A stretch of DNA of 56,151 bases from Chloroflexota bacterium (GTDB lineage: Bacteria; Chloroflexota; Limnocylindria; QHBO01): assembly GCA_040005815.1 (NCBI GenBank), contig JBDTYC010000001.1, positions 1 to 56,151 of the forward strand, written 5' to 3'. The translations under genes and the position numbers were made by a program. Under the pieces are notes generated by a model. That model was given only the letters and a program-made list of their open reading frames with translations. It had not been told where the DNA came from and searched no databases. Positions 29,154-56,143 of this stretch are shown here, one piece after another (position 1 is the stretch's first letter; each line of letters begins with the position of its first letter).

Positions 29154-29189
29154 GGTTTCTTTCTCGCCCGGTCCGAGGGCACTCAGCGG

Positions 29190-36442: not shown

Positions 36443-36465
36443 GGATATACTCCCCTGTAGTATCC
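36443..36465. promoter_or_regulatory. palindromic operator/-10 candidate upstream of copA (GGATATACTCCCCTGTAGTATCC)
   Basis: Arms ATACT-N7-AGTAT and GGATA-N13-TATCC surround a C-tract. TAGTAT is a -10-like hexamer 13 nt before the ATG. The left half resembles CsoR-type ATACCCC operators (from memory). Confidence 0.3.
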
Positions 36466-36475
36466 TGAAGGACCT

Positions 36476-41708: not shown

Positions 41709-42439
41709 ACGGCGTCATCGCAGGAATCACGCTGCGCCAGCTCCTCTCGCGGCGACGTACCCTCCTGCTCCTCCTGCTCGGCGGCGTGCTGGTGCTCGTG
41801 GCTGGGATCTTCCGCCTCGCCGGAGAGGAGGCGCGCGCGCTGCCATTCACCTCCGGCCTCCTCGGCAACCTGGGGATCGGCACGCTCATGCCACTCGTCG
41901 CGCTGATCTTCGGCACCGGGGCGATCGGCGCCGAGATCGAGGATGGAACGGCGATCTTCCTGCTTGCCAAGCCGATCAGCCGCACGACCGTGGTCTTCAC
42001 CAAGCTGGCGGTCGCTGCGCTGTGTGCCGCGGCGCTGACCTGCGGGCCGATGCTGCTCGCCGGCCTCATCGCCGCCGGCGGCCTGGGCGACGGGCTCGTG
42101 ATCGGGATGGTGGCAGGCGCCGCCATCGGCTCGCTGCTGTACAGCGCCGTCTTCGTGGCGGTAAGCCTGACCACCGGCCGCGCGCTGGTCTTCGGGCTCG
42201 CCTATGTGCTGATCTGGGAAGGGTTGCTGGCCGGCCTCTTCGCGGGGACGCGGACATTCAGCATCCGGCAGCTGACCCTGGCCTTCGCCGATGCCATCGG
42301 CGGCATCCCGAAACACATTTTGGATGCCCCCGTCAGCGTGACCACGGCGGCCATCGTGGGGATCGCCCTTTTGGCCATCGCCACCGTCATCGCCATCCGA
42401 CGGCTGAGCGCGTTCGAGATCTCCGGGGAATCCGCCTAG
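41705..42439 (+). CDS. ABC-2 family transporter permease (second permease)
   Basis: 244 aa with about 6 TM segments. ATGA overlap with the preceding ATPase gene. Confidence 0.65.
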   Translation: MNGVIAGITLRQLLSRRRTLLLLLLGGVLVLVAGIFRLAGEEARALPFTSGLLGNLGIGTLMPLVALIFGTGAIGAEIEDGTAIFLLAKPISRTTVVFTKLAVAALCAAALTCGPMLLAGLIAAGGLGDGLVIGMVAGAAIGSLLYSAVFVAVSLTTGRALVFGLAYVLIWEGLLAGLFAGTRTFSIRQLTLAFADAIGGIPKHILDAPVSVTTAAIVGIALLAIATVIAIRRLSAFEISGESA

Positions 42440-44547
42440 GCCGCAACGACCCGGTTGCGACCAGCGCGCTTGGCCATGAAGAGGGCCACGTCCGCCGTCC
42501 GGAGCAGCTGCTCACCGGTCGGCTCAGCCTCCCCAAGCTCGGCGCAGCCGGCTGACACGGTGACGGTGAGCCGGGTAGCGTCGTCGCTCGCGATTGGCAG
42601 CTGGGCGAGGTTGGCCATGATCTCACCGGCGACGGCCACCGCCGCATCGCGTGACGCCCCCTCGAGCACGACCACGAACTCCTCGCCGCCGAAGCGCGCG
42701 ACGAGGTCAACCTCGCGGAACCGGGTGCGCAGGACGCCGGCGAATGCGCGGAGCACCTGGTCGCCAGTCTGGTGGCCGTGCTGCTTGTTGAACTCACCGA
42801 AGTGGTCGAGGTCGAACATGATCGCTGCCACCGGGCGCCGATCCGCGCGGAGCGAGCGTCGCCAGGTCGCGATGACACGATTCAGTGCCTCGTCGAAGTA
42901 GCGTCGGTTGTAGAGACCGGTCAGCGGGTCGTGGGTCGCAAGCTGCTCGACCTCGGCATGCAGGTATGCATTCGAGATCGCCAGCGCGGCGTGGCCAGCC
43001 AGGAGCTCCATCGCCTCCAGGTCGATGGGACGGAACGGGGTCGAGCGGTCGCGCCGCAGGATGGAGATCGCGCCGACGACCACCCCATCGCGTTGGAGCG
43101 GGATCCCTGCGCCCATCAGCGGATGAGGCTCCGCGACTTCCGCGTAGGCCGGCGGGTACCGGTCGGGACCGAAGTTGTCGTCGATGACCACCGTCCGGGC
43201 GCGGATCGCCCGGCCGGCGAGGCCCTCGCCGGGCTTGATCTCGCGGTCCAGGATCGCCTTGTCAATCTCGGTCGCGGCACGCATCAGGTAGCGTCCGGTC
43301 TCGCGCTCCAGCACGGTGAGCGAGACGATGTCGGCCGGGACGACACGGCGGACGGCCTCGACCATGGCGGCGCCGAGGCGCGACATGTCGAGCTCGCCAC
43401 TCACCGCATCCGTGAAGTCGCTGAGGCTGCGGAGGACGACGGCGCGCTCGCCGAGCGCCTGCCGGTCCCGTCCGAGCGCCACCACCGTGGCGATTCGCCC
43501 CGCCAGCGTGGCTACCAGGTCGCGATCTGTCCCATCCAGGGGCGTGATCGCTTCCACGTTGAGGATGCCAAGAAACTCCCCGTCGAAGAGAAGCGGGGCG
43601 CAGATCTCGCTCCTCACCTCGTCGTACACCGCGACGTAGTCCGGGTCGGTGGTAACGTCCGGCACGAAGGCCACCTCGTGCTCGCGCATCACGCGCCCAA
43701 CCACCCCCTCGGTGCCATCGAACGATGCGCGGGGGTGCTCGTAGCCCCGCTGCGCCCCGAGCGCGAGCCCGTCGGCTTCGGCGAGGTAGATCGAGACGTA
43801 GTTGTAGTGGAACCGGTCGATCAGCACGCCGAGCGCCTGGTCGAGCATCAGCGCCACCGGCCCACCTGAGACGAGGAGCTGACTGACGGCCTCCATCCCG
43901 GCGATCTGGCGCGACTTGCGGCGCTCGGAAACCATCGTCGAGCGCAGCTTCGCGTTCGCGTCCTCGACCGCGATCACAAGCCGGCGAGTGCCGAGCGCGA
44001 CCAGGATGCTGACTCCCGCCATCGTGACGCCGCGCAGCGCGATCTCGGCTCGTGAGCCAGGCACCGCAAGCTCCGGCGCGAGGTAGATGAGGGATGCGGC
44101 CGCGCCGATGACCACGGCCTGGCTGGTTCCCAATGCCGCCGCGGCGACTACGATTGGGATGTAGAGCGCGAACATCGGGTGGGTGTGTCCCCCGACCAGC
44201 TCGGCGAGTGCGGCGACATAGAGGAGGCTCGCGGCGAGGCGCAGGAACGACCAGCCGCGGCGGCTGAGCGGGCGTGAACGAGCGGGTACGAGCGCCAGGA
44301 TCAGCTGAAGGCCGATGAAGATCGGGCTGACGATGGCGACCGTCGGAAGGTCCCGGGGCTCCTGCGAGAGGAGCGCGACCGCCAACCCGATCGGCGCCAG
44401 CGCGGCCGTGTAGAGGAAGAACGGATCTCGAAGGAGGTCGACGTGCGCACGCCGACGCACCACGCGACCGGCATGCGCCCACGGTCCCGCCCGCCACGGG
44501 CGGGGCAGCAGGTTTGCGTCGGTCGGCCGGGATGCGGCGGTTCCCAT
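42436..44547 (-). CDS. membrane-anchored GAF-GAF-GGDEF diguanylate cyclase
   Basis: About 6 N-terminal TM helices and two GAF-like regions. The GGDEF domain has DPLTGLYNRRYF and ARFGGEEFVVVL. The start is uncertain. Confidence 0.85.
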   Translation of the reverse strand: MGTAASRPTDANLLPRPWRAGPWAHAGRVVRRRAHVDLLRDPFFLYTAALAPIGLAVALLSQEPRDLPTVAIVSPIFIGLQLILALVPARSRPLSRRGWSFLRLAASLLYVAALAELVGGHTHPMFALYIPIVVAAAALGTSQAVVIGAAASLIYLAPELAVPGSRAEIALRGVTMAGVSILVALGTRRLVIAVEDANAKLRSTMVSERRKSRQIAGMEAVSQLLVSGGPVALMLDQALGVLIDRFHYNYVSIYLAEADGLALGAQRGYEHPRASFDGTEGVVGRVMREHEVAFVPDVTTDPDYVAVYDEVRSEICAPLLFDGEFLGILNVEAITPLDGTDRDLVATLAGRIATVVALGRDRQALGERAVVLRSLSDFTDAVSGELDMSRLGAAMVEAVRRVVPADIVSLTVLERETGRYLMRAATEIDKAILDREIKPGEGLAGRAIRARTVVIDDNFGPDRYPPAYAEVAEPHPLMGAGIPLQRDGVVVGAISILRRDRSTPFRPIDLEAMELLAGHAALAISNAYLHAEVEQLATHDPLTGLYNRRYFDEALNRVIATWRRSLRADRRPVAAIMFDLDHFGEFNKQHGHQTGDQVLRAFAGVLRTRFREVDLVARFGGEEFVVVLEGASRDAAVAVAGEIMANLAQLPIASDDATRLTVTVSAGCAELGEAEPTGEQLLRTADVALFMAKRAGRNRVVAA

Positions 44548-44681
44548 TCACAGCAGACCGTAATCATCCCGACCAGACCGCACCATTCCCCGGAAGTCAC
44601 CCGTACGGATGGGCTGCAAGCCCGGCTGATGGCTTCGCATCGGTTATGGTTGACCTAGCAACTAACCCGAGGAGCCGACCC

Positions 44682-45656
44682 ATGCCCGCCGTGACCGCTG
44701 ACCTCCTAACCCTTCCCCGCCTCTCGACCATCGCGCCCAGTAGCGTTGCGCGCCCGGTCCGAGCGGTCGTCACCGCTATCCGCACCTTCGAGGGCGAGGG
44801 CTTCCCGGTCCGCCGACCGTTTCCCGGGATCGACCTCTCGCTGGTCGATCCATTCATCCTCCTCGACCAGATGGGCGCAGTGGAGTACGCAGCCGGCGAG
44901 GCGAAGGGCGCGCCGGATCACCCGCATCGCGGCTTCGAGACGGTCACCTACATGCTCGACGGGGTGATCGAGCATCGAGACAGCATGGGCGGCGGCGGAA
45001 CGATCAGTGATGGCGCGACCCAGTGGATGACCGCCGGCGCGGGGATCGTGCATTCCGAGATGCCGCCCGAATACCTCGTCCGCTCCGGAGGCCTCTTCCA
45101 CGGCGTCCAGCTGTGGGTCAACCTGCCAGCGCGGCTCAAGTGGAGCCCGCCCCGATACCAGGACATCGTGCCCGGTGACGTGACCCTGATCAGCAACACC
45201 GATGGCTCGGCGCTGGTGCGGATCATCGCCGGTGAGTTGGATGGCCATGCAGGCCCTGGCGTGACCTACATCCCGATCGCCTACGCCCACGCCACGCTCC
45301 ATCCGGAGGCTTGCCTGGCCGTCCCGTGGCGCGCGGACTTCAACGCGCTGGTCTATGTGCTGGCAGGGAGCGGCCGAGTGGGTCCGGAGGACGCACCGAT
45401 CGGGGAGGGGCAGCTGGCCATTCTAGGCGGAGGGGATCACGTGGCGATCAGCGCTGACCGGACGCCCGCCGGTGCGTCACCGACCCTGGAGATCCTCCTG
45501 CTCGGCGGCCAGGCGATCCGGGAGCCGATCGCGCACTACGGACCCTTTGTGATGAACACGCGCGAGGAGATCCTGCAGGCGGTGGCGGACTACCAGGCCG
45601 GGCGCATGGGCACGATCCCGCCGGTCCACGGTCTCACGGCGGGCTCGACGCCCTAG
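44682..45656 (+). CDS. pirin family protein (bicupin)
   Basis: Motifs DHPHRGFETVTYML, QWMTAGAGIVHSE and GVQLWVNLP. ATG is preceded by GAGGAG (44669-74). Confidence 0.85.
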   Translation: MPAVTADLLTLPRLSTIAPSSVARPVRAVVTAIRTFEGEGFPVRRPFPGIDLSLVDPFILLDQMGAVEYAAGEAKGAPDHPHRGFETVTYMLDGVIEHRDSMGGGGTISDGATQWMTAGAGIVHSEMPPEYLVRSGGLFHGVQLWVNLPARLKWSPPRYQDIVPGDVTLISNTDGSALVRIIAGELDGHAGPGVTYIPIAYAHATLHPEACLAVPWRADFNALVYVLAGSGRVGPEDAPIGEGQLAILGGGDHVAISADRTPAGASPTLEILLLGGQAIREPIAHYGPFVMNTREEILQAVADYQAGRMGTIPPVHGLTAGSTP

Positions 45657-45675: not shown

Positions 45676-45738
45676 TCAGGCCTTCGGCTTCTTCGGCTTC
45701 TTCGGCTTCGGGGGTCGCTTGGGTGTCTTGTCGGCCAT
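45676..45738 (-). CDS. possible 20-aa Lys/Pro-rich peptide MADKTPKRPPKPKKPKKPKA
   Basis: ATG at 45738 lies 5 nt downstream of a perfect AGGAGG (rc of 45743-48), 52 nt after the stop of the cyclase-NTPase gene. It is too short to appear in the ORF track. Confidence 0.3.
   Translation of the reverse strand: MADKTPKRPPKPKKPKKPKA
45682..45708. repeat. 3 x 9-nt perfect tandem repeat (CTTCGGCTT)
   Basis: Read directly from the sequence. It encodes the KPK repeats of the small ORF on the minus strand. Confidence 0.9.
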
Positions 45739-45790
45739 GAGGTCCTCCTGACCGGAGTGTAGGACGACCGACCGGTGTCGCGTCGCCCCG

Positions 45791-48700
45791 CTAGGTCACG
45801 GATTCGGCTTGCGCTTCTGTCGGCGCCGACTCGATCGGCCGGCTCTGCGGCGCGGGTGACGCCGCTCCCCTGACGATGGCGAGGCGGTCGAGGATCGGCT
45901 TCGCGCCGAGTCCCTCGAGTGTTGCACGTGCCCAGTCGACCGCGGTGTGGACGTCGGCCGAGGCCCGCTCGTTCGGTGGAAGCAGGGTCGCCATGTCCGT
46001 CACGGCCAGTGCCTCATCGAAGGCAAGGCCGGCCTGGCGCCAGCCCTTGAGAAGCTCGCGGTACCCAGCCAGGGCCTCCGCGCCGCGCCCTTCGAGCGCC
46101 GCGACGCCCGCACGGATCGTCGCCATGTCAAGCTCTACGGCCGTCCCGCGATGGCCCGACGCATGGAGGGCTTCGACGGCTGCGGCAGCGCGTTCGGCGT
46201 CGCCGGCCCACAGCGCCGCCCGCGCAGCCAGCGGGGTGGCGAGTGGGTGAAAGTAGCTTGTAACGGCTGCGGCAAGCTCCGCCTCGTGGCACGCATCAGC
46301 ATACGAACCAGCCGTGAACGCCGCCCACGAGCGGGCCCAATGTTCGTACGACTCGAACTGGGAATCCGTGATCGCCTGGCGCAGTTGCGCCGCTTTCGCG
46401 ATGTCAGCCGAGGCGTCGCCACCCCGCAGCGCGGTCAGAATCGCCCGGTCGGAGAAGAACTCCGCATACCATGCGAACGATGGGTCGGGCGGAATCCACT
46501 CATCGAGAAGCGCTTCGACCCAATCCCACTCTCCGACCCGAATCGCGCAGATGCTGCCATTGCCAACCATGGTTGCTCCGTACGACCGAGAGCTGATTCG
46601 ATGTGCGATCTCGAGTCCCTCGCGAGCGAGGGCCAGACCTTCCGAACTGTCGTTCCACTGCGCGTAGAAGGTCAGCAGGACCCGGCCTGTTCGCTCCCTC
46701 TCCCAGAAGCCGATGGCTGTCGCCAGTTGATGGCCACCCCGCAGCAGGACCAGCGCCTCGCGTGACCGGTTCATCTTTATCAGGATCTGGGCCCGTGAGA
46801 TGAGGCCGGTGGCGATCGCCTCCATAAGGTCAAGGCGCTCGGCGATCGGCAAATATCGGTCGACCCAGCCAAGCGCAACATCCTCATTCAGGCTCCCCGA
46901 ATTGCTGGCTGCCAAAGCGGCCATCAGCCACACGCCCTCTGGTGTCTGCTCGAGGTCAGAGAACTCCGCCCATGCCGGCTCGAGGATCTCGACGGCGCGC
47001 TGCGGAGTGCCGAGCCAGCCCTGCACCGTGCGTGCGTAATTCGCGATGGCCGCGGCGATGGCCGGGCGGTCTCCAATCTCACGGGCCGCTTCCAACTGCC
47101 CGAGGGCGTGGCGCTCGACGGTGGATGGATCGAGGCCATGCTCGGCGGAGTCCTGGCCGCGCCCATGGAGATCGGCGCGGTCCTCGGCGCTGGTCGCCAC
47201 CTCGAGCGCCTGTTCCAGGAACTTCACTGCCTGCTCGTGCGAGCCGAGGGATGCCGCGCGATCGGCGGCTCCCCGCAGCGCGATGCGCGCCTGGGCCGCC
47301 AGCGCATCGGCCTCGTCCTTGTCCGCTGCCAGGCGCTGGGCGGCGAGGTAATGGCCGGCCAGCCCGCCGGCCAGCTCATCTGTCCCGAGGCTCTCGAAGA
47401 ACCGGGCGGCCGCCAGGTGCCGAACCTTGCGGTCCTTTTTGGCCAGCGTGTTGTAGGCGACTTCGCGGATGAGGGACTGCATGAAGGAGTACTGCCCCCG
47501 CTCCGGGGAACGTGCGTCGGCTTCAAGGATCAGCAGCTCGCGTCGAACGAACGTCCTCAGTCGCGGCTCCAGCTCGGCGCCATTGATGCCGGAGATGGCG
47601 GACAGTCCTGCAACCGTGAAACTCTGCCCCAGCACCGCGGCGTCCTCGATCAGCCCTCGGTCGGCCGCCTCTAGCCCGTCCAGCCGCGCCGCGATCAACG
47701 ACGTCAGCGACTGAGGAACGGCAATTTCGCCGAGATCACCGGTGGGCCGGTAGGCACCGTCCTCGAGCACGAGCTGGCCCTGGGCAAGGAGCATGCGGAC
47801 GGTCTCCACCGCGTAGAGAGGCATCCCGTCGGCCCGCTCGACGATGGCGTCCGCGGTGCGTGGCGGCAGCCCCGGGACGAGGCCCGCGAGCAGACGGTGC
47901 ATCTCTTCGGGCGGCAGGGGTTCCAGGTGGATCGACGTGAAGTTGCGTTTTCCCGCTCCCCAGTCCGGCCGCTTCTCGAGCAGCTCCGGGCGTGCCAGCG
48001 TGATCACCGTGATCGGAACCGTGCGGCTCCACTCCATGAGGTGGTCGATGAAGTCGAGTGTCCCGGAATCGGCGTGGTGCAGGTCCTCGAACAGCATCAC
48101 CACCGGCGAGACCGCGGCCATGCGTTCGAAGAACGTACGCCAGGCGGCGAAGAGCTGGTCCGAGCTGATATCGGCCTCGAACCCGAGCAGTGCCAGCAGC
48201 GCCGATTGGATCCAGCGCCGTTCGTCGGCAGCGGGCACGTGCTGCTCGACCGCGGCCGCGATCTTCTCTCGACTCACGGCCTCGTCGTCCGTCTCCAGCA
48301 GGCCGGCCCGTCCCCGGATCATCTCGCCCAACGCCCAGAAGGTGATGCCGTCGCCATAGGCAGGGCTGCGCCCCGCGTGCCACCAGGTCTGGCCCGCCAC
48401 CCCATCCACGTACTTGAGGAACTCCCAGGCGAGGCGAGACTTTCCGATGCCCCCCGGCCCGATCAGGCTCACGAGGCGCGGCCTCCCCTCGCGCTGGGTC
48501 GCGTGGAAGAGATCCTTGATCTGGCGCAGCTCCTCGTCGCGACCGACGAACGGCGCCTCCAGGGCCTCGCTCCGGTTGCGGCCTCCGATCTCCGACACCA
48601 CACGGACCGCGCGCCAGGTGGGGACCGCCTCGGCCTTGCCCTTCAATGCCTGCTCGCCGGCATCCTCGAAGACGATCGATTGCGCCGCCGCCCGCTGGGT

Positions 48701-49327
48701 CGTCTCTCCCACCAGGACGGTGCCGGGCCTGGCCGCCGATTGGAGGCGGCTGGCCGTGTTGACGATGTCGCCCGCCACCATGCCCTGGTTGGTGGCGCCA
48801 AGGGTCACCGCCGCCTCGCCCGTCAGGACGCCGCATCGGGCCCGGATGCCCGGGCCGAGAGTCGTGACAATATCCACCAGGTCGAGCGCGGCCCGCACCG
48901 CGCGCTCCGCGTCATCTTCGCGGGCGATCGGCGCTCCCCACACGGCCATCACCGCGTCGCCGATGAACTTCTCGACGGTCCCCCCGTACCGCTCGATGAT
49001 CTCGCGCGATACGTCGAAGTAACGGCTGAGGGTCTCACGCACCTCCTCGGCATCGCGCTCCTCGGAGAACGGAGTGAATCCAACGAGGTCGGCGAAGAGG
49101 ACCGAGACGAGCCGGCGCTCCGAGACGGGCCGCGGGCCACGGCCGGTCGTGGTCGATGCGTCCGGGGTAGCCGCGACCGCCAACGGCGTTGCGCACTCCG
49201 AGCAGAACCTGGCGGTGGGCGGGTTCGCGAAGCCGCACTGCGGGCAGGCGGCGGCGAAGGGGGCAGCACAGTCGTTGCAGAACTTCGCCCCGGCGCGGTT
49301 CTCGCTCCCGCAGCTTGGACAGATCAA
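45791..49327 (-). CDS. double zinc-ribbon / class III adenylate-guanylate cyclase / P-loop (AAA_16, STAND-like) NTPase / TPR-like repeat protein (paralog A)
   Basis: Zinc ribbons CPSCGSEN..CNDC...CPQCG..CSEC. Cyclase motifs VLFADLVGFT, EKFIGDAVMAVWG and VNTASRLQ. NTPase motifs FVGRDEEL, GPGGIGKSRL and MLFEDLHHAD, followed by a ~600-aa helical repeat tail. The TTG start at 49327 was chosen because paralog B starts MDCPSCG and B's stop is at 49332. Confidence 0.8.
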   Translation of the reverse strand: MICPSCGSENRAGAKFCNDCAAPFAAACPQCGFANPPTARFCSECATPLAVAATPDASTTTGRGPRPVSERRLVSVLFADLVGFTPFSEERDAEEVRETLSRYFDVSREIIERYGGTVEKFIGDAVMAVWGAPIAREDDAERAVRAALDLVDIVTTLGPGIRARCGVLTGEAAVTLGATNQGMVAGDIVNTASRLQSAARPGTVLVGETTQRAAAQSIVFEDAGEQALKGKAEAVPTWRAVRVVSEIGGRNRSEALEAPFVGRDEELRQIKDLFHATQREGRPRLVSLIGPGGIGKSRLAWEFLKYVDGVAGQTWWHAGRSPAYGDGITFWALGEMIRGRAGLLETDDEAVSREKIAAAVEQHVPAADERRWIQSALLALLGFEADISSDQLFAAWRTFFERMAAVSPVVMLFEDLHHADSGTLDFIDHLMEWSRTVPITVITLARPELLEKRPDWGAGKRNFTSIHLEPLPPEEMHRLLAGLVPGLPPRTADAIVERADGMPLYAVETVRMLLAQGQLVLEDGAYRPTGDLGEIAVPQSLTSLIAARLDGLEAADRGLIEDAAVLGQSFTVAGLSAISGINGAELEPRLRTFVRRELLILEADARSPERGQYSFMQSLIREVAYNTLAKKDRKVRHLAAARFFESLGTDELAGGLAGHYLAAQRLAADKDEADALAAQARIALRGAADRAASLGSHEQAVKFLEQALEVATSAEDRADLHGRGQDSAEHGLDPSTVERHALGQLEAAREIGDRPAIAAAIANYARTVQGWLGTPQRAVEILEPAWAEFSDLEQTPEGVWLMAALAASNSGSLNEDVALGWVDRYLPIAERLDLMEAIATGLISRAQILIKMNRSREALVLLRGGHQLATAIGFWERERTGRVLLTFYAQWNDSSEGLALAREGLEIAHRISSRSYGATMVGNGSICAIRVGEWDWVEALLDEWIPPDPSFAWYAEFFSDRAILTALRGGDASADIAKAAQLRQAITDSQFESYEHWARSWAAFTAGSYADACHEAELAAAVTSYFHPLATPLAARAALWAGDAERAAAAVEALHASGHRGTAVELDMATIRAGVAALEGRGAEALAGYRELLKGWRQAGLAFDEALAVTDMATLLPPNERASADVHTAVDWARATLEGLGAKPILDRLAIVRGAASPAPQSRPIESAPTEAQAESVT

Positions 49328-49331
49328 CGGG

Positions 49332-52300
49332 TTACGACCTCTGACGCTCTTCGGTCGCAAGAGGATAGCGGGCGCTGGTGGCTGACAGCGTGGCCAGCGA
49401 GGTGGCGCCAAGCCGCTCGAAGATCTCCCGCGCCGAGGCCTGGTCGTCGACGTGCCCGGCGAGGAACCAGCGATCGAGGTGGCACAGGGCGAGCCGCAGC
49501 GGCAGATCGAGCTCGCGCCAGGCACCCAGTGCAGCGGCCCATTCCCGCTCCGCGGCGCTGGATGCCGCGTGCTGAGAGGCGACGGCCGCGCGAAGGGTCT
49601 GCCGGGCCGCTTCCGCCGAGCGGCCCCACAACCGGTGGGCATCGAGCGCATCGGATGCCTGTGCCGCGCCGTCCGCATCACCACTCCATGCCGCCAGCCG
49701 ACCCGCCAGGGCGAGCGCCTCGAATTCCTCGAAGCCCTCCGCCCCCTGAGTCGCCGCTCGGGCCAGGTCCAGTGCGTCGGAGAACCTGCCGCCGGACATC
49801 TCGACCATGGCTCGAGCGTGGTTGATGGAGCCAACCGCCTGGAGGTCCAGATCGGCCTCGAGGTCGCCTATCCCCTCGATGGGCCGCGATGCTTCCGCGA
49901 TCCCCCGCATCGCCCGGATGACCGTCTGGGTCACAGCGAAGTCGACCCGGTAGACCGTTGGCAATTCGCCGCTCGATGCGTCGGCGAGCGCCGTCATCGC
50001 CCAGTCCCAGTCGCCGATGTCGACGGCGACCACGCTCGCGACGTCGACCAATTGGAGCGCCATCTCGCGGCTGCCGAGCCGGTTAGCCAGGTCCAGACCC
50101 CTGCGGGCGGTGCGGGATGTCTCCTGCGGATCGTCGCTCACGGTGACCCACGCCAGGTTGTTGAGCGCCCGGAGCTGGAGCCGGCCAAGGTCCGCCGCCT
50201 CGGCATCTTCGATCGACCGGCGCAAAAGCTCGAGCCCCTCTGCGGCTCCCTCCTCGGCGCGAGCGGTGCCCAGCGTGATCCGCGCGTCGATGGCCGTTGC
50301 AATGGCCGCGCCGGTGTCGCCGTTGGCCTCCGCCGCCGCGATGGCGCGCTCGGCCCACTCGACGGCCCGGGGCCGGTCCCCGCGCAGCAGGTGCGCGCGG
50401 GCGAGCTCCGCTGGCAGCTCGGGCGGGACGGAGGCGCCGTCCCCTCCCGCGGTCGCCGCCGTCCAGGCGGCCTCGAGCTCCGCCAGGGCGGTGTCGCTTC
50501 GCTGCGCCTGCAGGAGGAGGCTCGCCAGCTGGGCACGATGACGTGACGCCCCAGCCGCGTCGTGGAGACCCTCCCGCAGCCCGATCGCGTCGCGGAGATG
50601 CTCCTCCGCCCGATCGAAGCGGGCCGCGGAACGGGCGGCCAGCCCGGCCGCCTCTGCCAGATCGGCTCGCGCGGCAGGGAGATCAGTGAGCTTGAGGGCG
50701 TCCTCAAGGTGAGTCAGGGCTCGCACCGGCGCATGGAGCGCCTGGGCTCGATCCGCGGCGAGCTGCAGCGCCTCGCGCGCACGACCCGCGATCGCGGCAT
50801 CCTCGGGCTGCGGCGCGGCGCCGGAGGTGAGCGCCGCGAGCAGGTGCTCGGCGATCGGTTCGGCGAGATCGGGATCGTCGAGCGATTCCAGGTAGGCGAC
50901 CACTTCGAGGTGCCGGGTTCGACGCTGGCGGCGCGACAGGGTGTAGTAAGCGACCTCGCGCACGAGCTCCTGCACGAAGCTCAGCTGCCCGCGACCCGGC
51001 GACCGTGGCTCGTCGTCCATCGACAGGAACTCACGCCGCAGGAGGGCGCGCACGCGTTCCCCGAAGGATCGGGGATCGGCGCCCGACAGCGCGGCCAGCG
51101 ACTCTGGCGCAAAGCGGCGGCCCAGCACGGCGCCGGTCAGGAGGAGCGCCCGATCCGCAGCGGGCAGCGCGTCGATGCGAGCCGCGATGAGCGCATGAAG
51201 GGACTCGGGGATGTCGGCGGTCGACTCGACCCCGCCACTCGGAGAGCGTTCCATCAGCATCCGCGCCATCTCGACCGCATAGAGCGGTACGCCGTCGGCC
51301 CGTCGGCGTACCGTCGTCACGATCTGCGGCGAGAGGCCCGGAGCGAGGGCGGCCAACAGCTCGTCGATCGCTTCGTCCGGCAGGCGGTCGAGGTGCATCG
51401 CGGTGAAATGCGGCAGGCCCGCGCCCCAGGTTGGTCGAGCGTCGAGCAGCTCAGGGCGGCCCAGGGTGAGCACCAGGATGGGACGGTGGCGCGACCAGTC
51501 GGCGACGTAGTCGATGAAGTCGAGGAGGCCCGGATCTGCCCATTGCAGGTCCTCGAAGACGAGCGCGATCGGCCCCTCATCGGCCTGTGCCTCGAAGAAG
51601 CGTCGCCAGGCCGCGAAGAGCTCCTCGCGCTGCGCCTCCTGGCTCCCGCTCGGTTCGAGCAGCGCCAGGAGCCGCGGCTCCATCCATTCGCGCTCCGCGT
51701 CGTCAGGAAGGAGGCGGTTGAGCGTCTCGCCCAGCGCACGTCGCACCAGCTCGACGGGGTCGCTCTCGGCGATCCCGGCGCTGCGGCGCACCACGTCGGC
51801 GAGCGGCGCGAAGGCCGTCCCCTCGCCGTAGGCGGGGGCCCTCCCGACCTGCCATCTCGCTCGCGCGGCAGCGTCCCCGGCTCGCTGCTCCAGCTCCCAG
51901 GCGAGCCTGCTCTTCCCGATCCCGGCGATCCCGATCACCGACACGACGCGCATCCGGTGCTCATCCCCCACGGCAGACAGGAGCTCGAGGAGCGCTCGCA
52001 GCTCAGCATCGCGGCCCACGAACGGCCCGGGATGCCCCGCCCGGGACTCAGTGCCGGGGTGCTGCGCGACGCCCACGGCGCGCCATGCCGCGACCGCGGA
52101 GGCCTTCCCCTTCAGCAGCTGATCGCCAGCCGCCTGGAACTCGATCGCCTGACCGATGACGCGGCGGGTCACGTCATCGACCAGGACCGTGCCTGGCTCC
52201 GCCGCGCTCTGCAGGCGTGACGCGGTGTTCACGAGGTCGCCGGTGACCATCCCCTGTCCGGTGGCGTCGACCGTCACCGCCGCCTCCCCGGTCGTGATGG

Positions 52301-52760
52301 CGGCACGCGCCACGAGGTGTCCGCTGCCGGGGGACGCGATCGTCTCTACCGCGGCGACGACCTCGAGTGCCGTGCGGACTGCGCGCTCTGCGTCGTCCTC
52401 GTGGGCGACCGGCGTCCCCCATACCGCCATCACGGCATCGCCGATAAATTTCTCGAGGGAACCTCCGTAATGCGCGACGGCAGCACGAGCCGCCTCGAAG
52501 TAGAGCGACTGGATCTCGCGCACGTCCTCCGGATCCAGCGACTCCGAGAGGGTCGTGAACCCCACCAGGTCGAGGAAGAGGACAGAGACGAGCCGCCGCT
52601 CCGCGAGGCTCGGGCGCGACTCCGCAACGCCGTGCGCATCATGAACACCGCCTGCGCCGACGGCCGGTGCCTCCGGTCGTGAGGACGTGAGCGCAATCCC
52701 GCAGGTCGGGCAGAAACGGAACTCCGCCGGATAGGTCAGGCCACAGCTGGGGCAGTCCAT
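49332..52760 (-). CDS. zinc-ribbon / class III nucleotide cyclase / P-loop STAND-like NTPase / TPR-like repeat protein (paralog B)
   Basis: Zinc ribbon MDCPSCG..CPTCG. Cyclase motifs VLFLDLVGFT, EKFIGDAVMAVWG and VNTASRLQ. NTPase motifs FVGRDAEL, GIAGIGKSRL and LVFEDLQWAD, followed by a helical repeat tail. TTG at 52823 is an alternative start. Confidence 0.8.
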   Translation of the reverse strand: MDCPSCGLTYPAEFRFCPTCGIALTSSRPEAPAVGAGGVHDAHGVAESRPSLAERRLVSVLFLDLVGFTTLSESLDPEDVREIQSLYFEAARAAVAHYGGSLEKFIGDAVMAVWGTPVAHEDDAERAVRTALEVVAAVETIASPGSGHLVARAAITTGEAAVTVDATGQGMVTGDLVNTASRLQSAAEPGTVLVDDVTRRVIGQAIEFQAAGDQLLKGKASAVAAWRAVGVAQHPGTESRAGHPGPFVGRDAELRALLELLSAVGDEHRMRVVSVIGIAGIGKSRLAWELEQRAGDAAARARWQVGRAPAYGEGTAFAPLADVVRRSAGIAESDPVELVRRALGETLNRLLPDDAEREWMEPRLLALLEPSGSQEAQREELFAAWRRFFEAQADEGPIALVFEDLQWADPGLLDFIDYVADWSRHRPILVLTLGRPELLDARPTWGAGLPHFTAMHLDRLPDEAIDELLAALAPGLSPQIVTTVRRRADGVPLYAVEMARMLMERSPSGGVESTADIPESLHALIAARIDALPAADRALLLTGAVLGRRFAPESLAALSGADPRSFGERVRALLRREFLSMDDEPRSPGRGQLSFVQELVREVAYYTLSRRQRRTRHLEVVAYLESLDDPDLAEPIAEHLLAALTSGAAPQPEDAAIAGRAREALQLAADRAQALHAPVRALTHLEDALKLTDLPAARADLAEAAGLAARSAARFDRAEEHLRDAIGLREGLHDAAGASRHRAQLASLLLQAQRSDTALAELEAAWTAATAGGDGASVPPELPAELARAHLLRGDRPRAVEWAERAIAAAEANGDTGAAIATAIDARITLGTARAEEGAAEGLELLRRSIEDAEAADLGRLQLRALNNLAWVTVSDDPQETSRTARRGLDLANRLGSREMALQLVDVASVVAVDIGDWDWAMTALADASSGELPTVYRVDFAVTQTVIRAMRGIAEASRPIEGIGDLEADLDLQAVGSINHARAMVEMSGGRFSDALDLARAATQGAEGFEEFEALALAGRLAAWSGDADGAAQASDALDAHRLWGRSAEAARQTLRAAVASQHAASSAAEREWAAALGAWRELDLPLRLALCHLDRWFLAGHVDDQASAREIFERLGATSLATLSATSARYPLATEERQRS

Positions 52761-52803
52761 CAGATTGACCGCGATCGGCCAAGCCAGAGCAGGTGCGTCG
52801 CGG

Positions 52804-53160
52804 CTACTCCTCTTCCTTCGCAAGGGTGATGCCGACCGTGCTCGGATTCGTCGAAACGAGCACCATGGCGTAGACGATGAAGCGCTCGAGCGTCTTCTCG
52901 TGGTTCACGATCATCGTCGAGATGCGCGGCGTCTCGTCCTCGTTGATCAGGCGGTACCTGCGGAGAGCCTTGACGGGGTTGTGAATCAGCTCCTCCGCCT
53001 CTCCTTCGGCACCGTCGGGGTCGCCGCTCGGGCTCTTGAAGGCTCGAAAGTGCAGACGGAAGGCGGGAGCCATCACGTCCGGGGTTATGTCCATCCACTC
53101 ACTCGGAACGCCTCGCTCCGCGTACTTCTCCTGCAGCATCGCCCATGCGTCGTCGAACAT
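52804..53160 (-). CDS. hypothetical cytoplasmic protein (118 aa), first gene of the cyclase operon
   Basis: ATG at 53160 is preceded by AAAGGAGGAGG. The composition is protein-like and not R/P/G-biased. No family is recognised. Confidence 0.6.
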   Translation of the reverse strand: MFDDAWAMLQEKYAERGVPSEWMDITPDVMAPAFRLHFRAFKSPSGDPDGAEGEAEELIHNPVKALRRYRLINEDETPRISTMIVNHEKTLERFIVYAMVLVSTNPSTVGITLAKEEE

Positions 53161-53205
53161 CGGTCCTCCTCCTTTTGCCCTTCGGGGCGCTGATCATAAG
53201 TCGGC

Positions 53206-53335
53206 CCTGATGACCTGCCTAGATGCCACGCGGTGTCGGTCGAATGACAGGCCCGCTGTCCGGGGGCTGCTGGTGGGATCACGATTGCGCGACGAGACTG
53301 TGGGGAAGGCCGGCCACAGGCAGGTCATCATCAGG
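53206..53335. repeat. inverted repeat in the divergent promoter/leader region (12-nt perfect core)
   Basis: CCTGATGACCTGCCT (53206-20) pairs with AGGCAGGTCATCATCAGG (53318-35): 12 perfect bp, a 3-nt bulge, then 3 bp. The right arm runs into the AGGAGG SD of the 53347 gene. Confidence 0.6.
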
Positions 53336-53346
53336 AGGTCGAATCG

Positions 53347-53925
53347 ATGAGCGGATCGCAGGAGGGCGCCGCCCTCAACATGAAGGACGGGCAGGGGATG
53401 CTGGCCATCTCAATCCCGGACCAGGAGACGGAGCAGCGGCTCCGAGCACGCTTGACCGGTAGCAAGGGCGCGGCGCTCGCCGTGCGGATCAGCGCGGCGC
53501 AGCCAGCCGACGTCGAGGGCCACGCCTTTGACCTCGCCTCGGTCTGGGTCAGGCTACAGCTGGAGGGGGACGACACAGAGGGGCACGCCATTCGGGTCCA
53601 GTTCCCGACCGCAGCCGACGCGGACAGGTTCCGTCGCAACGTCCTCGTCGCCGGCATCCTCGCGAGCTCCATCGTCCTCGGCTCGGCAGGCGCGATCGCG
53701 TTGACCAGCCAGCCAGCCGCGAACAGCACGACGGACCAGTCGGAGGTGTTCCAGGCGCCAGCGCAGGGGACCGATGTCCTCACCGGTATCAACCCGGCGA
53801 CCGGCAAGCCCTGGCGCAGCGGATTCCTCGAGCGGTCCGACGGTGAGGTGATGGCACCCGCCGACGCCGCGGCGCCAGTCATGCAGCGACCGGAGGGCCG
53901 TGGCCCGCTGGAGACGGTCGAGTAG
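53347..53925 (+). CDS. hypothetical single-pass membrane protein with duplicated D-[VT]-E-G-H-A motif
   Basis: ATG is preceded by AGGAGG with an 8-nt spacer. TM helix is VLVAGILASSIVLGSAGAIALT. The motifs are DVEGHAF and DTEGHAI. Confidence 0.55.
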   Translation: MSGSQEGAALNMKDGQGMLAISIPDQETEQRLRARLTGSKGAALAVRISAAQPADVEGHAFDLASVWVRLQLEGDDTEGHAIRVQFPTAADADRFRRNVLVAGILASSIVLGSAGAIALTSQPAANSTTDQSEVFQAPAQGTDVLTGINPATGKPWRSGFLERSDGEVMAPADAAAPVMQRPEGRGPLETVE

Positions 53926-53943
53926 CAGGAACGAGGTGACCAG

Positions 53944-53973
53944 CGAGGTGAGCGGCCAACGCCGCTCACCTCG
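53944..53973 (+). terminator. GC-rich hairpin (13-bp perfect stem, 4-nt loop) downstream of the 53347 gene
   Basis: CGAGGTGAGCGGC-caac-GCCGCTCACCTCG. There is no U-tract, as is common for high-GC hairpin terminators. Confidence 0.5.
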
Positions 53974-54081
53974 TACGTGCCCCGCGTCGCGGCCGGCGCA
54001 GGCGGGGATATGCGAACTGCTCGGGCTCGACTACGATACCGGTCCGAATTCCACTGATCGATCGCTCCCAGAGGAGGCGCC

Positions 54082-54519
54082 ATGGATCTCGAGAAGGCCC
54101 TCGCCGCAACCCCACTGCTCGCGGATCTCGATGCGGCAATCATCAAGCGACTCGCGGAGCAGGGCGTTCGTCGCGTCTACCCCGCCGGGGACTGGATCAT
54201 TCGCCAGGATGCGCCGGCATCAGCCCTCTACATCATCCTGCGTGGTCGCGCGCGGGCCGAGAAGGACGGCGAGATGGACCGCACGCCCAGTGAGCTGTAC
54301 CCCGGCGACTTCTTCGGCGAGCTCGCGCTCATCGAGGATCACCCTCGAACTGCGAGCGTCCTCGCCGTCGAGGAGACCGAGTGCATCCTCTTCGTAGCTT
54401 GGGAGTTCACCGCCCTCCTCAAGGAGCACCCCATCATGGCGGTGCCGATCATGAATGCGCTGATCAAGCGCCTCCATCGGCGCGAGCACAAGCCCGACGC
54501 ACCCGCCGCCAGCGCCTAG
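54082..54519 (+). CDS. stand-alone cyclic nucleotide-binding (CNB/cNMP) domain protein
   Basis: Phosphate-binding cassette FGELALIEDHPRTASVLA. At 145 aa it has no output domain. SD is GAGGAGG. Confidence 0.85.
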   Translation: MDLEKALAATPLLADLDAAIIKRLAEQGVRRVYPAGDWIIRQDAPASALYIILRGRARAEKDGEMDRTPSELYPGDFFGELALIEDHPRTASVLAVEETECILFVAWEFTALLKEHPIMAVPIMNALIKRLHRREHKPDAPAASA

Positions 54520-55367
54520 GGGTTCCCGGCCGGTCCCCCCGCGCGCTCTCGCGGGGCGCTACGCGGATTGTCTGCGACTGCCGCAAGCACGGCCTTGACC
54601 TCGAATGGGGTCAGTCCCGGGTGCTTGGACAGGATCAGCGCAACCATGGCGACCACGTGCGGCGCCGCAAAGCTGTTCCCCGTTGCGACGGTGGAGCCAC
54701 CGTCCTTCCAGGCCATCGGCACGTCCACACCCCACGCCCCGAACTCGACCGGCGGCGCCGGATTGTAGTAGAGGCGCAGAGGATCGGGCTCGCCATGCGC
54801 CGCCACGGAGATGACCGATGAGAACAGCGACGGGTAGCTCGCCGCGGGCACGTTGTTCGCCGCGCTGACGAGCACCGTGCGATTGAAATAGGCCCGATCG
54901 ACCAGGTCATGGAAAACCGGGAAGAGGGTCTCGCTCTTCGATGAGAGGCTGAGGTTCAGGACCTCGATCCCCTGGTCGATCGCCCATTCGAGCCCGGCCG
55001 CGAATGCGGCGCTCTTCCCTCGCAGGTCGGCGCCGAGGACCCGGACCGAGACCAGCGCGACCTCGGGAGCCATCTCCACGATGATCCCGCCGCAGGCCGT
55101 GGCGTGCCCGTACAGGTCCTTCCCGTCGTCCGGCACGACCTGCGCGTCGTCGTCGTCGAGCTCCACCGTAACGCTCTCGACGACGCGGCCTGCAAGGCGA
55201 GGGTGGTCGACCTCGAGGCCGCTGTCGATGATCCCAACCCTGATTCCCTTGCCGGTGGAGCCGCCCCATGCCCAGTCCCTGGAGATGCCACGCAGTCGCA
55301 TCCGGCGAGCGAGGCCGGGGATGTTGGCAAAGGGCTCCGACCACGCCGGAAGGTCGAGGCCGCTCAC
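54516..55367 (-). CDS. S8 (subtilisin-like) serine peptidase, minimal catalytic domain with no signal peptide or propeptide
   Basis: Asp in VGIIDSG, His in YGHATACGG, Asn in SAANN and Ser in GNSFAAPHV. The N-terminus is not hydrophobic. Confidence 0.8.
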   Translation of the reverse strand: MSGLDLPAWSEPFANIPGLARRMRLRGISRDWAWGGSTGKGIRVGIIDSGLEVDHPRLAGRVVESVTVELDDDDAQVVPDDGKDLYGHATACGGIIVEMAPEVALVSVRVLGADLRGKSAAFAAGLEWAIDQGIEVLNLSLSSKSETLFPVFHDLVDRAYFNRTVLVSAANNVPAASYPSLFSSVISVAAHGEPDPLRLYYNPAPPVEFGAWGVDVPMAWKDGGSTVATGNSFAAPHVVAMVALILSKHPGLTPFEVKAVLAAVADNPRSAPRERAGGPAGNP

Positions 55368-56143
55368 GCTCTTCGACGCGCTCGCTGTGCGTGTCGAGCG
55401 ACCACTTCGAGGATTTCGCCGATCAGGTTCAGGTCGCGCTCGCCCAGGCCGCGAACCAGCGCGACGTGGTCGACCAGTCGCCAGAAGGGGCCGGCGTCCG
55501 GATCGTCGTCGAGGCCCTCGGTCGCTTTCGAGACCACGGTCTCGACCTGCTCGTCGGTCATCGATTCGTCTGCGAGCTGGCGGAGGACCTCCCGCAGCAG
55601 GCGGACGGTGTCGCGCTGCACGCGCGTGGCGGTGATGGCGGTGGTTGCCTGCCGGGCGAAGATGGCCAGGAGCTCCATGTCCCGCAAGGAGAAGCTCGGA
55701 GACCCGCGCTTGTCCAGGACTTGGAGCACGCCGATCGAGCCGTCGTCGTCGAGTAGCGGCACGGTCGCGATCGACCGCGGAACGTACCCGGTGCGCTCGG
55801 CCGCCTCGAGGTCGAAGCGCGGATCCGAGGTGACGTCGGTCATCGCGAGGCCCTGACCTGTCGAGAAGACGTAACCGGCGATGCCCTCGTTCGGCTTGAC
55901 CACAAGGCCGACCACGCCGGCCCCATGCTCGCCTGCCGCGACGCGAAATTCGAGCCGATCCGGATCGGTCTCGTGCAACGCGATCGAGGAAGCCTCCGCA
56001 TCGAAGAGGCTGACAGTGGCGTCGACGATCGACTGCAGGAGGCGCTGCTCCACATCTCCCTGCAGGGTGCGGGCAACAGAAGACCGCCGCCCCACCGCCC
56101 TGAGGGCGGTGAGTGCGGCGGTCAGATCCTCATCTGCGACCAT
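55364..56143 (-). CDS. GAF domain protein with a C-terminal helical extension
   Basis: LLQSIVDATVSLFDAEASSIAL...GIAGYVFSTGQGLAMTDV...TVPLLDDDGSIGVLQVLDK is GAF-like. Its stop overlaps the S8 start by 4 nt. Confidence 0.75.
   Translation of the reverse strand: MVADEDLTAALTALRAVGRRSSVARTLQGDVEQRLLQSIVDATVSLFDAEASSIALHETDPDRLEFRVAAGEHGAGVVGLVVKPNEGIAGYVFSTGQGLAMTDVTSDPRFDLEAAERTGYVPRSIATVPLLDDDGSIGVLQVLDKRGSPSFSLRDMELLAIFARQATTAITATRVQRDTVRLLREVLRQLADESMTDEQVETVVSKATEGLDDDPDAGPFWRLVDHVALVRGLGERDLNLIGEILEVVARHAQRARRRA

Follow-up and report, generated by a model that had tools for sequence, protein, structure and literature searches.

The subject of this analysis is a group of seven genes and one micro-ORF (open reading frame) at positions 45,676 to 56,143 of contig JBDTYC010000001.1 (assembly GCA_040005815.1) of a Chloroflexota bacterium, where two nucleotide cyclases, a cyclic-nucleotide-binding (CNB) protein, a GAF domain protein and a subtilisin-like protease are encoded in close proximity. 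The window, i.e., the whole stretch of 56,151 nucleotides, was covered by the G+C profile and by the survey of ORFs and Pfam domains. A preliminary description of this DNA had presented the genes as a single cyclic nucleotide (cNMP) sensor-relay-protease system, possibly of an immune type. The gene order and strands given there are reproduced by the ORF calls, and the searches with profile hidden Markov models that it proposed as a check place the zinc ribbon, Guanylate_cyc, AAA_16, cNMP_binding, GAF and Peptidase_S8 domains above the Pfam gathering scores. The seven genes, with the names used hereinafter, are the following.

45791..49327, minus strand: cyc2, a double zinc ribbon, a class III cyclase domain, an AAA_16 STAND NTPase and a helical-repeat C-terminus of ~550 aa (Pfam)
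49332..52760, minus strand: cyc1, a zinc ribbon, a class III cyclase domain, an AAA_16 STAND NTPase and a helical-repeat C-terminus (Pfam)
52804..53160, minus strand: small118, 118 aa, a family of its own, with a strong Shine-Dalgarno sequence, AAAGGAGGAGG
53347..53925, plus strand: memb192, a single-pass membrane protein with a transmembrane (TM) helix at ~100-120 (ORF and motif search)
54082..54519, plus strand: CNB145, a stand-alone cNMP-binding protein of 145 aa that consists of the CNB domain only (PF00027)
54516..55367, minus strand: S8, a minimal cytoplasmic subtilase of 283 aa (PF00082)
55364..56143, minus strand: GAF259, 259 aa, a GAF domain followed by a conserved helical C-terminal region of ~80 aa (Pfam)

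Comparison with homologous loci (numbered L005, L007 and so on) shows that the region combines two or more modules, each conserved on its own, which adjoin each other in a single lineage only: module A, which comprises small118 and cyc1, and module B, which is centered on GAF259 and S8. The full seven-gene arrangement is confined to L005, L010, L022, L024, L026 and L033, and these loci also share the pirin and GGDEF genes that flank the region, so that the conserved order represents synteny by descent. In contrast, small118 and cyc1 occur without GAF, S8 or CNB genes within 10 kb in L011-L014 and L016-L021, about nine distinct genome loci of which two are near-identical and whose flanks are mutually unrelated, and the GAF-S8 pair is found without any cyclase-STAND gene, as in L009. 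Hence the seven genes are not co-inherited as one system. An arrangement in which the cyclases would sense a threat, the CNB and GAF proteins would receive the signal, and S8 would be freed as the effector accounts for the location of all parts within 10.5 kb, the retention of the full arrangement in the six loci listed above, and the matches of PycC and Pycsar-effector profiles to the cyclase and CNB domains; given the separation of the modules and the evidence that follows, we consider it very unlikely.

The analogy drawn previously with CBASS, Pycsar and Avs-type immunity did not survive closer inspection. The PADLOC search yielded generic matches to cyclase, CNB and subtilase domains, with no CD-NTase or Avs match; the PycC and PycTIR/Pycsar-effector profiles align with the cyclase and CNB domains, the effector profiles being covered in their CNB part only. 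The region does resemble Pycsar in combining a class III-type cyclase and a cNMP-binding protein in one neighborhood, but CNB145 carries neither a TIR nor a TM effector domain, and the cyclase and CNB genes are neither adjacent nor co-oriented. Furthermore, both Pycsar and CBASS/Avs systems differ from the genes described here in context: rather than a variable or defence-island setting, which had been suggested as a point to examine, the homologous loci show core chromosomal contexts, and the GAF-S8 pair is highly conserved. The G+C content of the window is uniform (65-73%), without a compositional step at the region. The genes in the remainder of the window are of common chromosomal kinds (an Lhr helicase, a multicopper oxidase, Usp, a response regulator, ABC transporters, a GT4 glycosyltransferase, a copper P-type ATPase, a GAF-GAF-GGDEF protein and pirin). 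Scans of viral contigs with anchors of both modules recovered no relatives. The identification as a defence system was accordingly rejected, and the proximity of genes for cyclase, CNB, GAF and protease proteins in this region would represent modular cyclic AMP (cAMP) signaling in the core chromosome rather than a new anti-phage system. On balance, although with considerable reserve, we favor the interpretation that the region is a chromosomal cNMP (most likely cAMP) signaling neighborhood made up of separately conserved modules that came to be juxtaposed in a Limnocylindria-type lineage.

Module A is defined by a strict association of two genes. The stop codon of small118 lies 43 nt ahead of the cyc1 start, and an orthologue of cyc1 (54-93% identity) is found directly downstream of the small118 homologue in every locus with downstream sequence, including all 13 of 13 species-level genome loci. 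As anticipated, the 118-aa protein has no family match in Pfam, NCBIfam or PADLOC. It is also rare: the homologues form 93 clusters, and only 30 representatives are detected at E <= 0.001 among 1.84 billion cluster representatives. Distant members (30-45% identity) share the motifs FKSSS...FIHDP...VNHxxTL and likewise adjoin a zinc-ribbon cyclase-AAA_16 gene, either convergently (L103/L104) or co-directionally (L106), or, in L105, a STAND protein of the AAA_16-TPR_MalT-GerE type. The AlphaFold2 model of small118 (pLDDT 86, pTM 0.80) is that of a compact folded protein; the fold has no match in PDB or BFVD, and there is no sequence relative in PDB. The combination of the adjacency to cyclase and STAND genes with an unmatched fold indicates that small118 represents a new small family specific to STAND proteins, either cyclase-STAND or MalT-like, and within the libraries and literature searched this partner family appears to be new. 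We infer that small118 gates or feeds the sensor of cyc1. For cyclase-STAND proteins such as Rv0386, a biological role has yet to be assigned to the ATPase/TPR part (bioRxiv 10.1101/2024.03.06.583649), and a strictly co-inherited 118-aa partner is a concrete candidate for gating this class.

The two cyclases are paralogs, as described previously, with 40% identity over 1115 aa; the cyclase and NTPase domains are strongly similar and the C-terminal sensor regions divergent. In both proteins the zinc ribbon (Zn_Ribbon/DZR), Guanylate_cyc and AAA_16 domains score above the gathering thresholds: 74.8 bits for cyc2 and 69.3 bits for cyc1 with Guanylate_cyc (PF00211, cut-off 21.9), and 75.4 and 72.3 bits with AAA_16 (cut-off 32.6). 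The cyclase domains, for which the nearest solved structures are Cya2 (2W01) and CyaB (3R5G), retain the metal-binding aspartates (D64 and D108 in cyc1, D80 and D124 in cyc2), the substrate-binding lysine (K104 and K120, respectively) and the transition-state residues (N178 and R182 in cyc1, N190 and R194 in cyc2). At the second substrate-specifying position both carry methionine (M171 in cyc1, M183 in cyc2), where CyaB has threonine; the canonical adenine-specifying pair is lysine with aspartate or threonine, and cyc1 and cyc2 thus combine Lys with Met. The NTPase domains contain an intact Walker A motif GxxGxGKS and a Walker B motif hhhhED (K283/D404 in cyc1, K296/D415 in cyc2). The TPR domain assigned to the C-terminal halves was not substantiated, the matches to TPR_7, TPR_8 and TPR_1 being sub-threshold (E 0.005-0.05, 14-17 bits against cut-offs of 25-30), and no useful match to the STAND/repeat part of cyc1 was obtained from PDB sequences.

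The cyc1 stop codon is 4 nt ahead of the likely start of cyc2, a TTG at 49327 being the probable start codon and 49360 an alternative. Despite this tandem arrangement, cyc2 does not require small118: L007 encodes cyc2 (81%) and has neither small118 nor cyc1, and, in L026, cyc1 is present and cyc2 is absent. A second family of cyclase-STAND proteins, of 830-900 aa, with Guanylate_cyc, AAA_16/NB-ARC and HTH_77/TPR_12 domains and without a zinc ribbon, is encoded in L005 (2642-5140), L026 (6063-8549), L038 (2423-4921), L042 (4666-7365) and L105 (2105-4759), frequently immediately ahead of the Crp-like gene that belongs to module B (see below).

The domain families of these proteins are all known, and so is the cyclase-ATPase-TPR architecture of mycobacteria. 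The closest counterparts are Rv0386, Rv1358 and Rv2488c, cyclase-ATPase-TPR-LuxR proteins in which a MalT/LAL-type STAND module is combined with a class III cyclase (bioRxiv 10.1101/2024.03.06.583649). Like these proteins, cyc1 and cyc2 have the class III cyclase in their N-terminal part, followed by an AAA_16/MalT-like NTPase and a long helical-repeat region. Unlike them, cyc1 and cyc2 possess an N-terminal zinc ribbon and lack the C-terminal LuxR/GerE helix-turn-helix (HTH) domain; the absence of the latter, noted already in the preliminary description, was confirmed by searches for GerE and other HTH domains in the complete proteins (Pfam, E <= 0.01) and in their C-terminal halves (E <= 10). 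The substrate pair also differs, Lys/Met compared to Gln/Asn in the mycobacterial family, where the latter pair has been tied to a guanylyl cyclase side activity of the Rv0386 family (bioRxiv 10.1101/2024.03.06.583649). Finally, a dedicated upstream small partner such as small118 is not reported for the mycobacterial proteins in the literature searched.

The best full-length profile match of the cyclases is TIGR03903, the TOMM (thiazole/oxazole-modified microcin) kinase/cyclase fusion family, members of which neighbor precursors related to the nitrile hydratase leader peptide (NHLP) family. The match covers profile positions 270-976 (cyclase, NTPase and the first repeats), i.e., about 700 residues of both proteins, and it is on this account that small118 was considered as an NHLP-type precursor of a ribosomally synthesized and post-translationally modified peptide (RiPP). 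Weak signals of the NHLP clan can indeed be detected, with NF038399 in 5 of 37 small118 members (best E 0.011) and PF14407 (Frankia_peptide) in 3 of 37 (E 0.12). All these matches are, however, far below threshold, and none was found in 10 distant members; the confident model matches neither the nitrile hydratase-like fold nor any other PDB structure; the protein is conserved through its C-terminus and has no Cys/Ser/Thr-rich core; and no maturase genes are adjacent in the neighborhoods examined. The TIGR03903 scores themselves, 215.2 and 177.7 bits, compare with a cut-off of 705.75, the match starts at position 270 or 323, past the kinase, which is absent from cyc1 and cyc2, and no TOMM cyclodehydratase or precursor genes are located nearby. 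The literature search on TIGR03903 retrieved nothing relevant. The RiPP precursor hypothesis for small118 was rejected, and we regard it as highly improbable.

The core of module B is the GAF-S8 couple, which is obligate: S8 directly follows the GAF gene in 71 of 71 GAF-anchored loci. The stop codon of GAF259 and the start codon of S8 overlap as GTGA, as stated in the preliminary description, and the two genes are translationally coupled through this overlap. GAF259 is highly conserved, with a mean column identity of 80% among 20 homologues and identities of 61-96% across at least 80 metagenome loci; it contains a motif, D-K-x5-F-x3-D-M-E (residues 144-157), that resembles NKFDE without being canonical. 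The protease (PF00082, E 8e-26, 91.4 bits, cut-off 21.8) retains the catalytic triad D48/H88/S232 and the oxyanion residue N172. Its alignment begins at residue 20 of mature subtilisin BPN' and, therefore, it has no propeptide; because the N-terminus is not hydrophobic either, the earlier view of S8 as a minimal subtilase devoid of signal peptide and propeptide stands. Among the NCBIfam profiles, S8 is matched by the leader-processing subtilases QhpE (E 2.4e-29, 102 bits against a cut-off of 165) and PatA (E 4.7e-6, 26 against 421), both below cut-off. S8 and CNB145 are convergent, and their stop codons share the palindrome CTAG (54516..54519), an overlap that is likewise called in L005. In L009 (7494-13533 of GCA_040002615.1, JBDUEE010000065.1), from a more distant Chloroflexota metagenome-assembled genome (MAG), the GAF-S8 pair, together with the repeat gene described below, lies between tig (trigger factor) and clpX, with no clpP called between these two genes and no cNMP gene nearby.

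Directly upstream of the GAF gene, 46 of 47 loci contain an ORF with at least two D[TVAI][EKQ]GH motifs (hereinafter DxEGH). This repeat gene is not part of the window, the last position of which is 8 nt upstream of the GAF start; a Crp-like regulator gene, also upstream of GAF, is outside the window as well. The repeat protein (for example, L007 9731-9997, L026 9575-9988, L074 9505-9936, L009 9527-9994) is acidic, has no Pfam family and contains 3-9 copies of D-D-D-[T/V]-E-G-H per ORF with a modal period of 15 aa. Among 236 units from 53 distinct ORFs, Glu is conserved in 98%, Gly in 100% and His in 100%, and the spacers are variable, being rich in His, Lys, Pro and Thr in the close lineage. 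It is pure speculation that cleavage just before the glutamate would yield Glu-Gly-His N-termini and thereby an X-X-His (ATCUN-like) metal site.

The same motif occurs twice in the N-terminal part of memb192 (ADVEGH at 54-59 and DDTEGH at 75-80), and its homologues retain the sequence LEGDDTEGHAI.V.FP just ahead of the TM helix. The earlier characterization of memb192 as a membrane protein of unknown family holds in that Pfam, NCBIfam and PADLOC give no family match, and is to be amended in that the protein shares DxEGH with the upstream repeat protein. When all retrieved loci were translated in six frames (~1.2 million residues of ORFs), no ORF other than the repeat ORF and the memb192 homologues contained DxEGH more than once. 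The memb192 gene adjoins CNB145 in two orientations, that of the window and that of L031/L032; given that this adjacency is kept also in L032, which has memb192 and CNB145 but no small118-cyc1, memb192 belongs to module B. Searches of the literature for the DDTEGH motif and for operons combining GAF with a cytoplasmic subtilisin returned nothing relevant. In the libraries and literature searched, we found no precedent either for the repeat-GAF-S8 triad with fixed Crp/CNB neighbors or for the motif link between the repeat protein and memb192, and both appear to be new. Between memb192 and CNB145, one further feature can be read from the sequence.

53944..53973, plus strand: an inverted repeat with a perfect 13-bp stem and a 4-nt loop, without a T-run

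In this high-GC genome, the stem-loop, located just after the memb192 stop codon, probably acts as a terminator between memb192 and CNB145.

The link of module B to cyclic nucleotides follows from the genes around it. In 22 of 27 loci, a co-oriented Crp-like gene (cNMP_binding and HTH_Crp_2 domains in Pfam) is located upstream at a distance of ~1.1 kb, its position being fixed across GAF identities of 64-93%, and a CNB gene follows S8 in 28 of 37 loci. The latter takes two unrelated forms, namely the convergent CNB145 in 10 loci of the close lineage and, in 18 loci of a sister lineage, an operonic gene on the same strand as S8 for an MFS_1/MFS_3 transporter of ~550 aa with a C-terminal cNMP_binding domain (MFS-CNB). 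CNB145 itself (E 4.9e-19, 68.5 bits, cut-off 27.5) is, as proposed earlier, a stand-alone domain with no output domain and with an intact phosphate-binding cassette FGELAL...RTA at residues 78-91, FGELALIEDHPRTA. The MFS-CNB gene directly follows S8 in, e.g., L093 (1737-3398), L054 (1677-3338), L085 (2030-3685) and 15 more loci, and a similar gene is found 8 kb off in L008. Thus, the neighborhood statistics suggested as a check came out in part: cyclic-nucleotide parts do cluster around GAF-S8 across divergent relatives, but the 118-aa protein, which keeps to cyc1, has no GAF, S8 or CNB gene within 10 kb in most of the genomes that encode it.

Class III cyclases of at least four architectures, in at least five arrangements, also adjoin the crp-repeat-GAF-S8 genes, although not universally. 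Orthologues resembling cyc2 (47-81% identity) recur downstream of module B in L007, convergently in L040, and divergently upstream of crp in L032 and L068; cyclase-STAND proteins of the NB-ARC type are found in L005, L026, L038 and L042; and L008 has cyclases fused to a hydrolase or to a receiver domain as the sole cyclase types there. In total, 12 of the 21 GAF-anchored loci with a flank of at least 8 kb contain a cyclase, compared to ~2 extra cyclases in roughly a dozen small118-anchored (non-GAF) loci, a comparison that is rough because the genomes are rich in cyclases.

These observations have to be weighed against the alternative that the modules are functionally unrelated neighbors, i.e., ordinary cAMP signaling genes next to a housekeeping GAF-S8 protease with a ligand other than a cNMP, the nearby cNMP genes reflecting genomic density. 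This view is compatible with the free separation of the modules and with the imperfect NKFDE-like motif of the GAF domain (DK..F..DME), and with several of the facts that count against the interpretation we favor. No cyclase is within reach in nine of the 21 long GAF-anchored loci, the Crp-like gene is missing from five loci, and L009 is devoid of cNMP genes altogether; the abundance of cyclases in these genomes inflates the chance of such neighborhoods; and the canonical TGTGA-N6-TCACA box is not enriched upstream of the repeat gene, where a scan allowing up to 2 mismatches gave 5 scattered, non-conserved matches in 27.5 kb and was uninformative. The interpretation we favor is further weakened by methionine in place of Asp/Thr at the second specificity position, which makes the cyclase product uncertain; the AlphaFold2 model of GAF259, built with 20 close homologues, which at pLDDT 55 is too poor for a fold search; the role of DxEGH, which may be that of a substrate, an inhibitor or a metal site; and the fact that all members are known from sequence alone, in an uncultured lineage. 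The position of the Crp-like gene, the two unrelated forms of the CNB gene after S8 and the five or more independent cyclase arrangements that flank module B speak, on the other hand, against chance proximity, and we consider the unrelated-neighbor alternative unlikely, albeit deserving of more attention than the other alternatives. Considering the gaps in the distribution of cyclase, Crp and other cNMP genes, we conclude that module B is often, and in recurrent positions, linked to cNMP genes, without this link being obligatory; module A is an independent unit.

Under the interpretation of the region as a cNMP signaling neighborhood, the following mechanism can be proposed. The STAND cyclases would be cytoplasmic, and their divergent helical-repeat C-termini, by analogy with MalT-type STAND proteins, may sense a ligand or a protein, with small118 as the prime candidate partner, specific for cyc1, and cyc2 as a tandem paralogue. 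Class III cyclases require dimers for catalysis, and NTP-dependent oligomerization would bring the cyclase domains into such dimers. The product, which is probably cAMP judging from the conserved lysine, would have the Crp-like regulator and CNB145 as its targets, along with MFS-CNB in the sister lineage. Translational coupling would supply GAF259 and S8 in a fixed ratio, and GAF259 might restrain or target the protease. The predicted clients of S8 are the DxEGH proteins, one soluble (the repeat protein) and one anchored in the membrane (memb192), which could be substrates freed as multiple peptides or, alternatively, decoys and anchors, with DxEGH serving as a putative recognition element of the protease or of the GAF protein. 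In its most complete form, which we put forward as a speculative and, on present estimates, improbable combination, small118 would be an obligate partner (ligand, presenter or brake) of the zinc-ribbon cyclase-STAND protein, and a cAMP-controlled, GAF-regulated S8 would cut DDD[T/V]EGH proteins and memb192 into peptides that, in the sister lineage, are exported by a cNMP-gated MFS transporter. The repeat-GAF-S8 triad with its Crp/CNB neighbors could be a compact unit through which a second messenger controls proteolysis or peptide release inside the cells of an abundant, uncultured soil lineage.

A distant parallel is offered by PopC/PopD of Myxococcus xanthus, in which a subtilisin-like protease without a signal peptide is kept in a cytoplasmic complex by its partner until a nucleotide second-messenger response sets it free (PMC6434023). 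The similarity is in outline only and by description, in that the cytoplasmic S8 has a partner, GAF259, proposed to restrain it; unlike the system considered here, PopC is secreted and controlled through (p)ppGpp rather than a cNMP. We know of no repeat-motif client protein of PopC.

A sharper version of the favored interpretation is that module B is a peptide maturation and export system, in which S8 would cut the repeat protein as a multi-core precursor, GAF259 would recognize it or regulate the cleavage, and MFS-CNB would export the products, possibly signaling or metal-binding peptides, under cNMP control. The layout of 18 loci, with a precursor-like repeat gene followed by GAF, the protease and an MFS_3 'secretion effector' transporter, fits this scheme, as do the 3-9 repeats, in which EGH is invariant and the spacers vary, and the weak matches of S8 to QhpE and PatA/PatG, which are minimal S8 domains (PatA/PatG being those of the cyanobactins) that act on ribosomal precursors with repeated recognition sequences. 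However, neither heterocyclase, radical-SAM nor other maturation genes are adjacent here, and cleavage of the repeat protein is putative. Furthermore, the conserved element is the motif and not a core peptide, with spacers that vary widely, the lineage of the window has CNB145 in place of the transporter, and the repeat protein itself lacks a family or literature match. We consider this maturation and export scheme unlikely.

The homologues of the genes in this region come from metagenomes throughout, and those with names belong to Chloroflexota (Candidatus Limnocylindria/Limnocylindrales, "uncultured Chloroflexia"). Accordingly, the actinobacterial origin assumed in the preliminary description is replaced by a lineage of Limnocylindria-type MAGs of Chloroflexota. 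A few homologue contigs bear other phylum labels; among those of the syntenic cluster, L010, L014 and L016 are binned as Methylomirabilota, Steroidobacteraceae and Patescibacteria, and are probably mis-binned Chloroflexota contigs.

The region is flanked by a GAF-GAF-GGDEF diguanylate cyclase (42436..44547, minus strand) and pirin (44514..45656, plus strand), a pair that is syntenic in L005, L007, L022 and L026, such that two kinds of second-messenger genes, for cyclic di-GMP and for cNMP, are neighbors. The wider neighborhood includes copper-related genes, namely a multicopper oxidase/cupredoxin (27789..29189, minus strand) and a P-type ATPase with an HMA domain (36461..38713, plus strand), to which CopD (1-821) can be added in L005; no link of these genes to the modules has been established. 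Next to pirin lies the remaining feature of the region.

45676..45738, minus strand: micro-ORF of 20 aa, a basic, Lys/Pro-rich conserved peptide, MADKTPKRPPKPKKPKKPKA, with a Shine-Dalgarno sequence

The preliminary description had listed it as a possible member of the cyclase operon. Judging from sequence conservation, it is a real small gene but is located outside that operon. The peptide is unchanged in four or five related loci (L005 at 18417, L022 at 19085, L026 at 17881 and L007, with a GTG start, at ~15850), although other proteins of the same loci are 81-93% identical; all DNA differences between the loci are synonymous, and the CAGGAGG Shine-Dalgarno sequence is kept. The micro-ORF invariably adjoins the 3' end of the pirin gene and goes with pirin rather than with the cyclases because L005 has another gene between the micro-ORF and the cyclase operon, and L026 has the micro-ORF in the absence of cyc2. 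Its product may be a small basic peptide associated with the ribosome or with nucleic acids.

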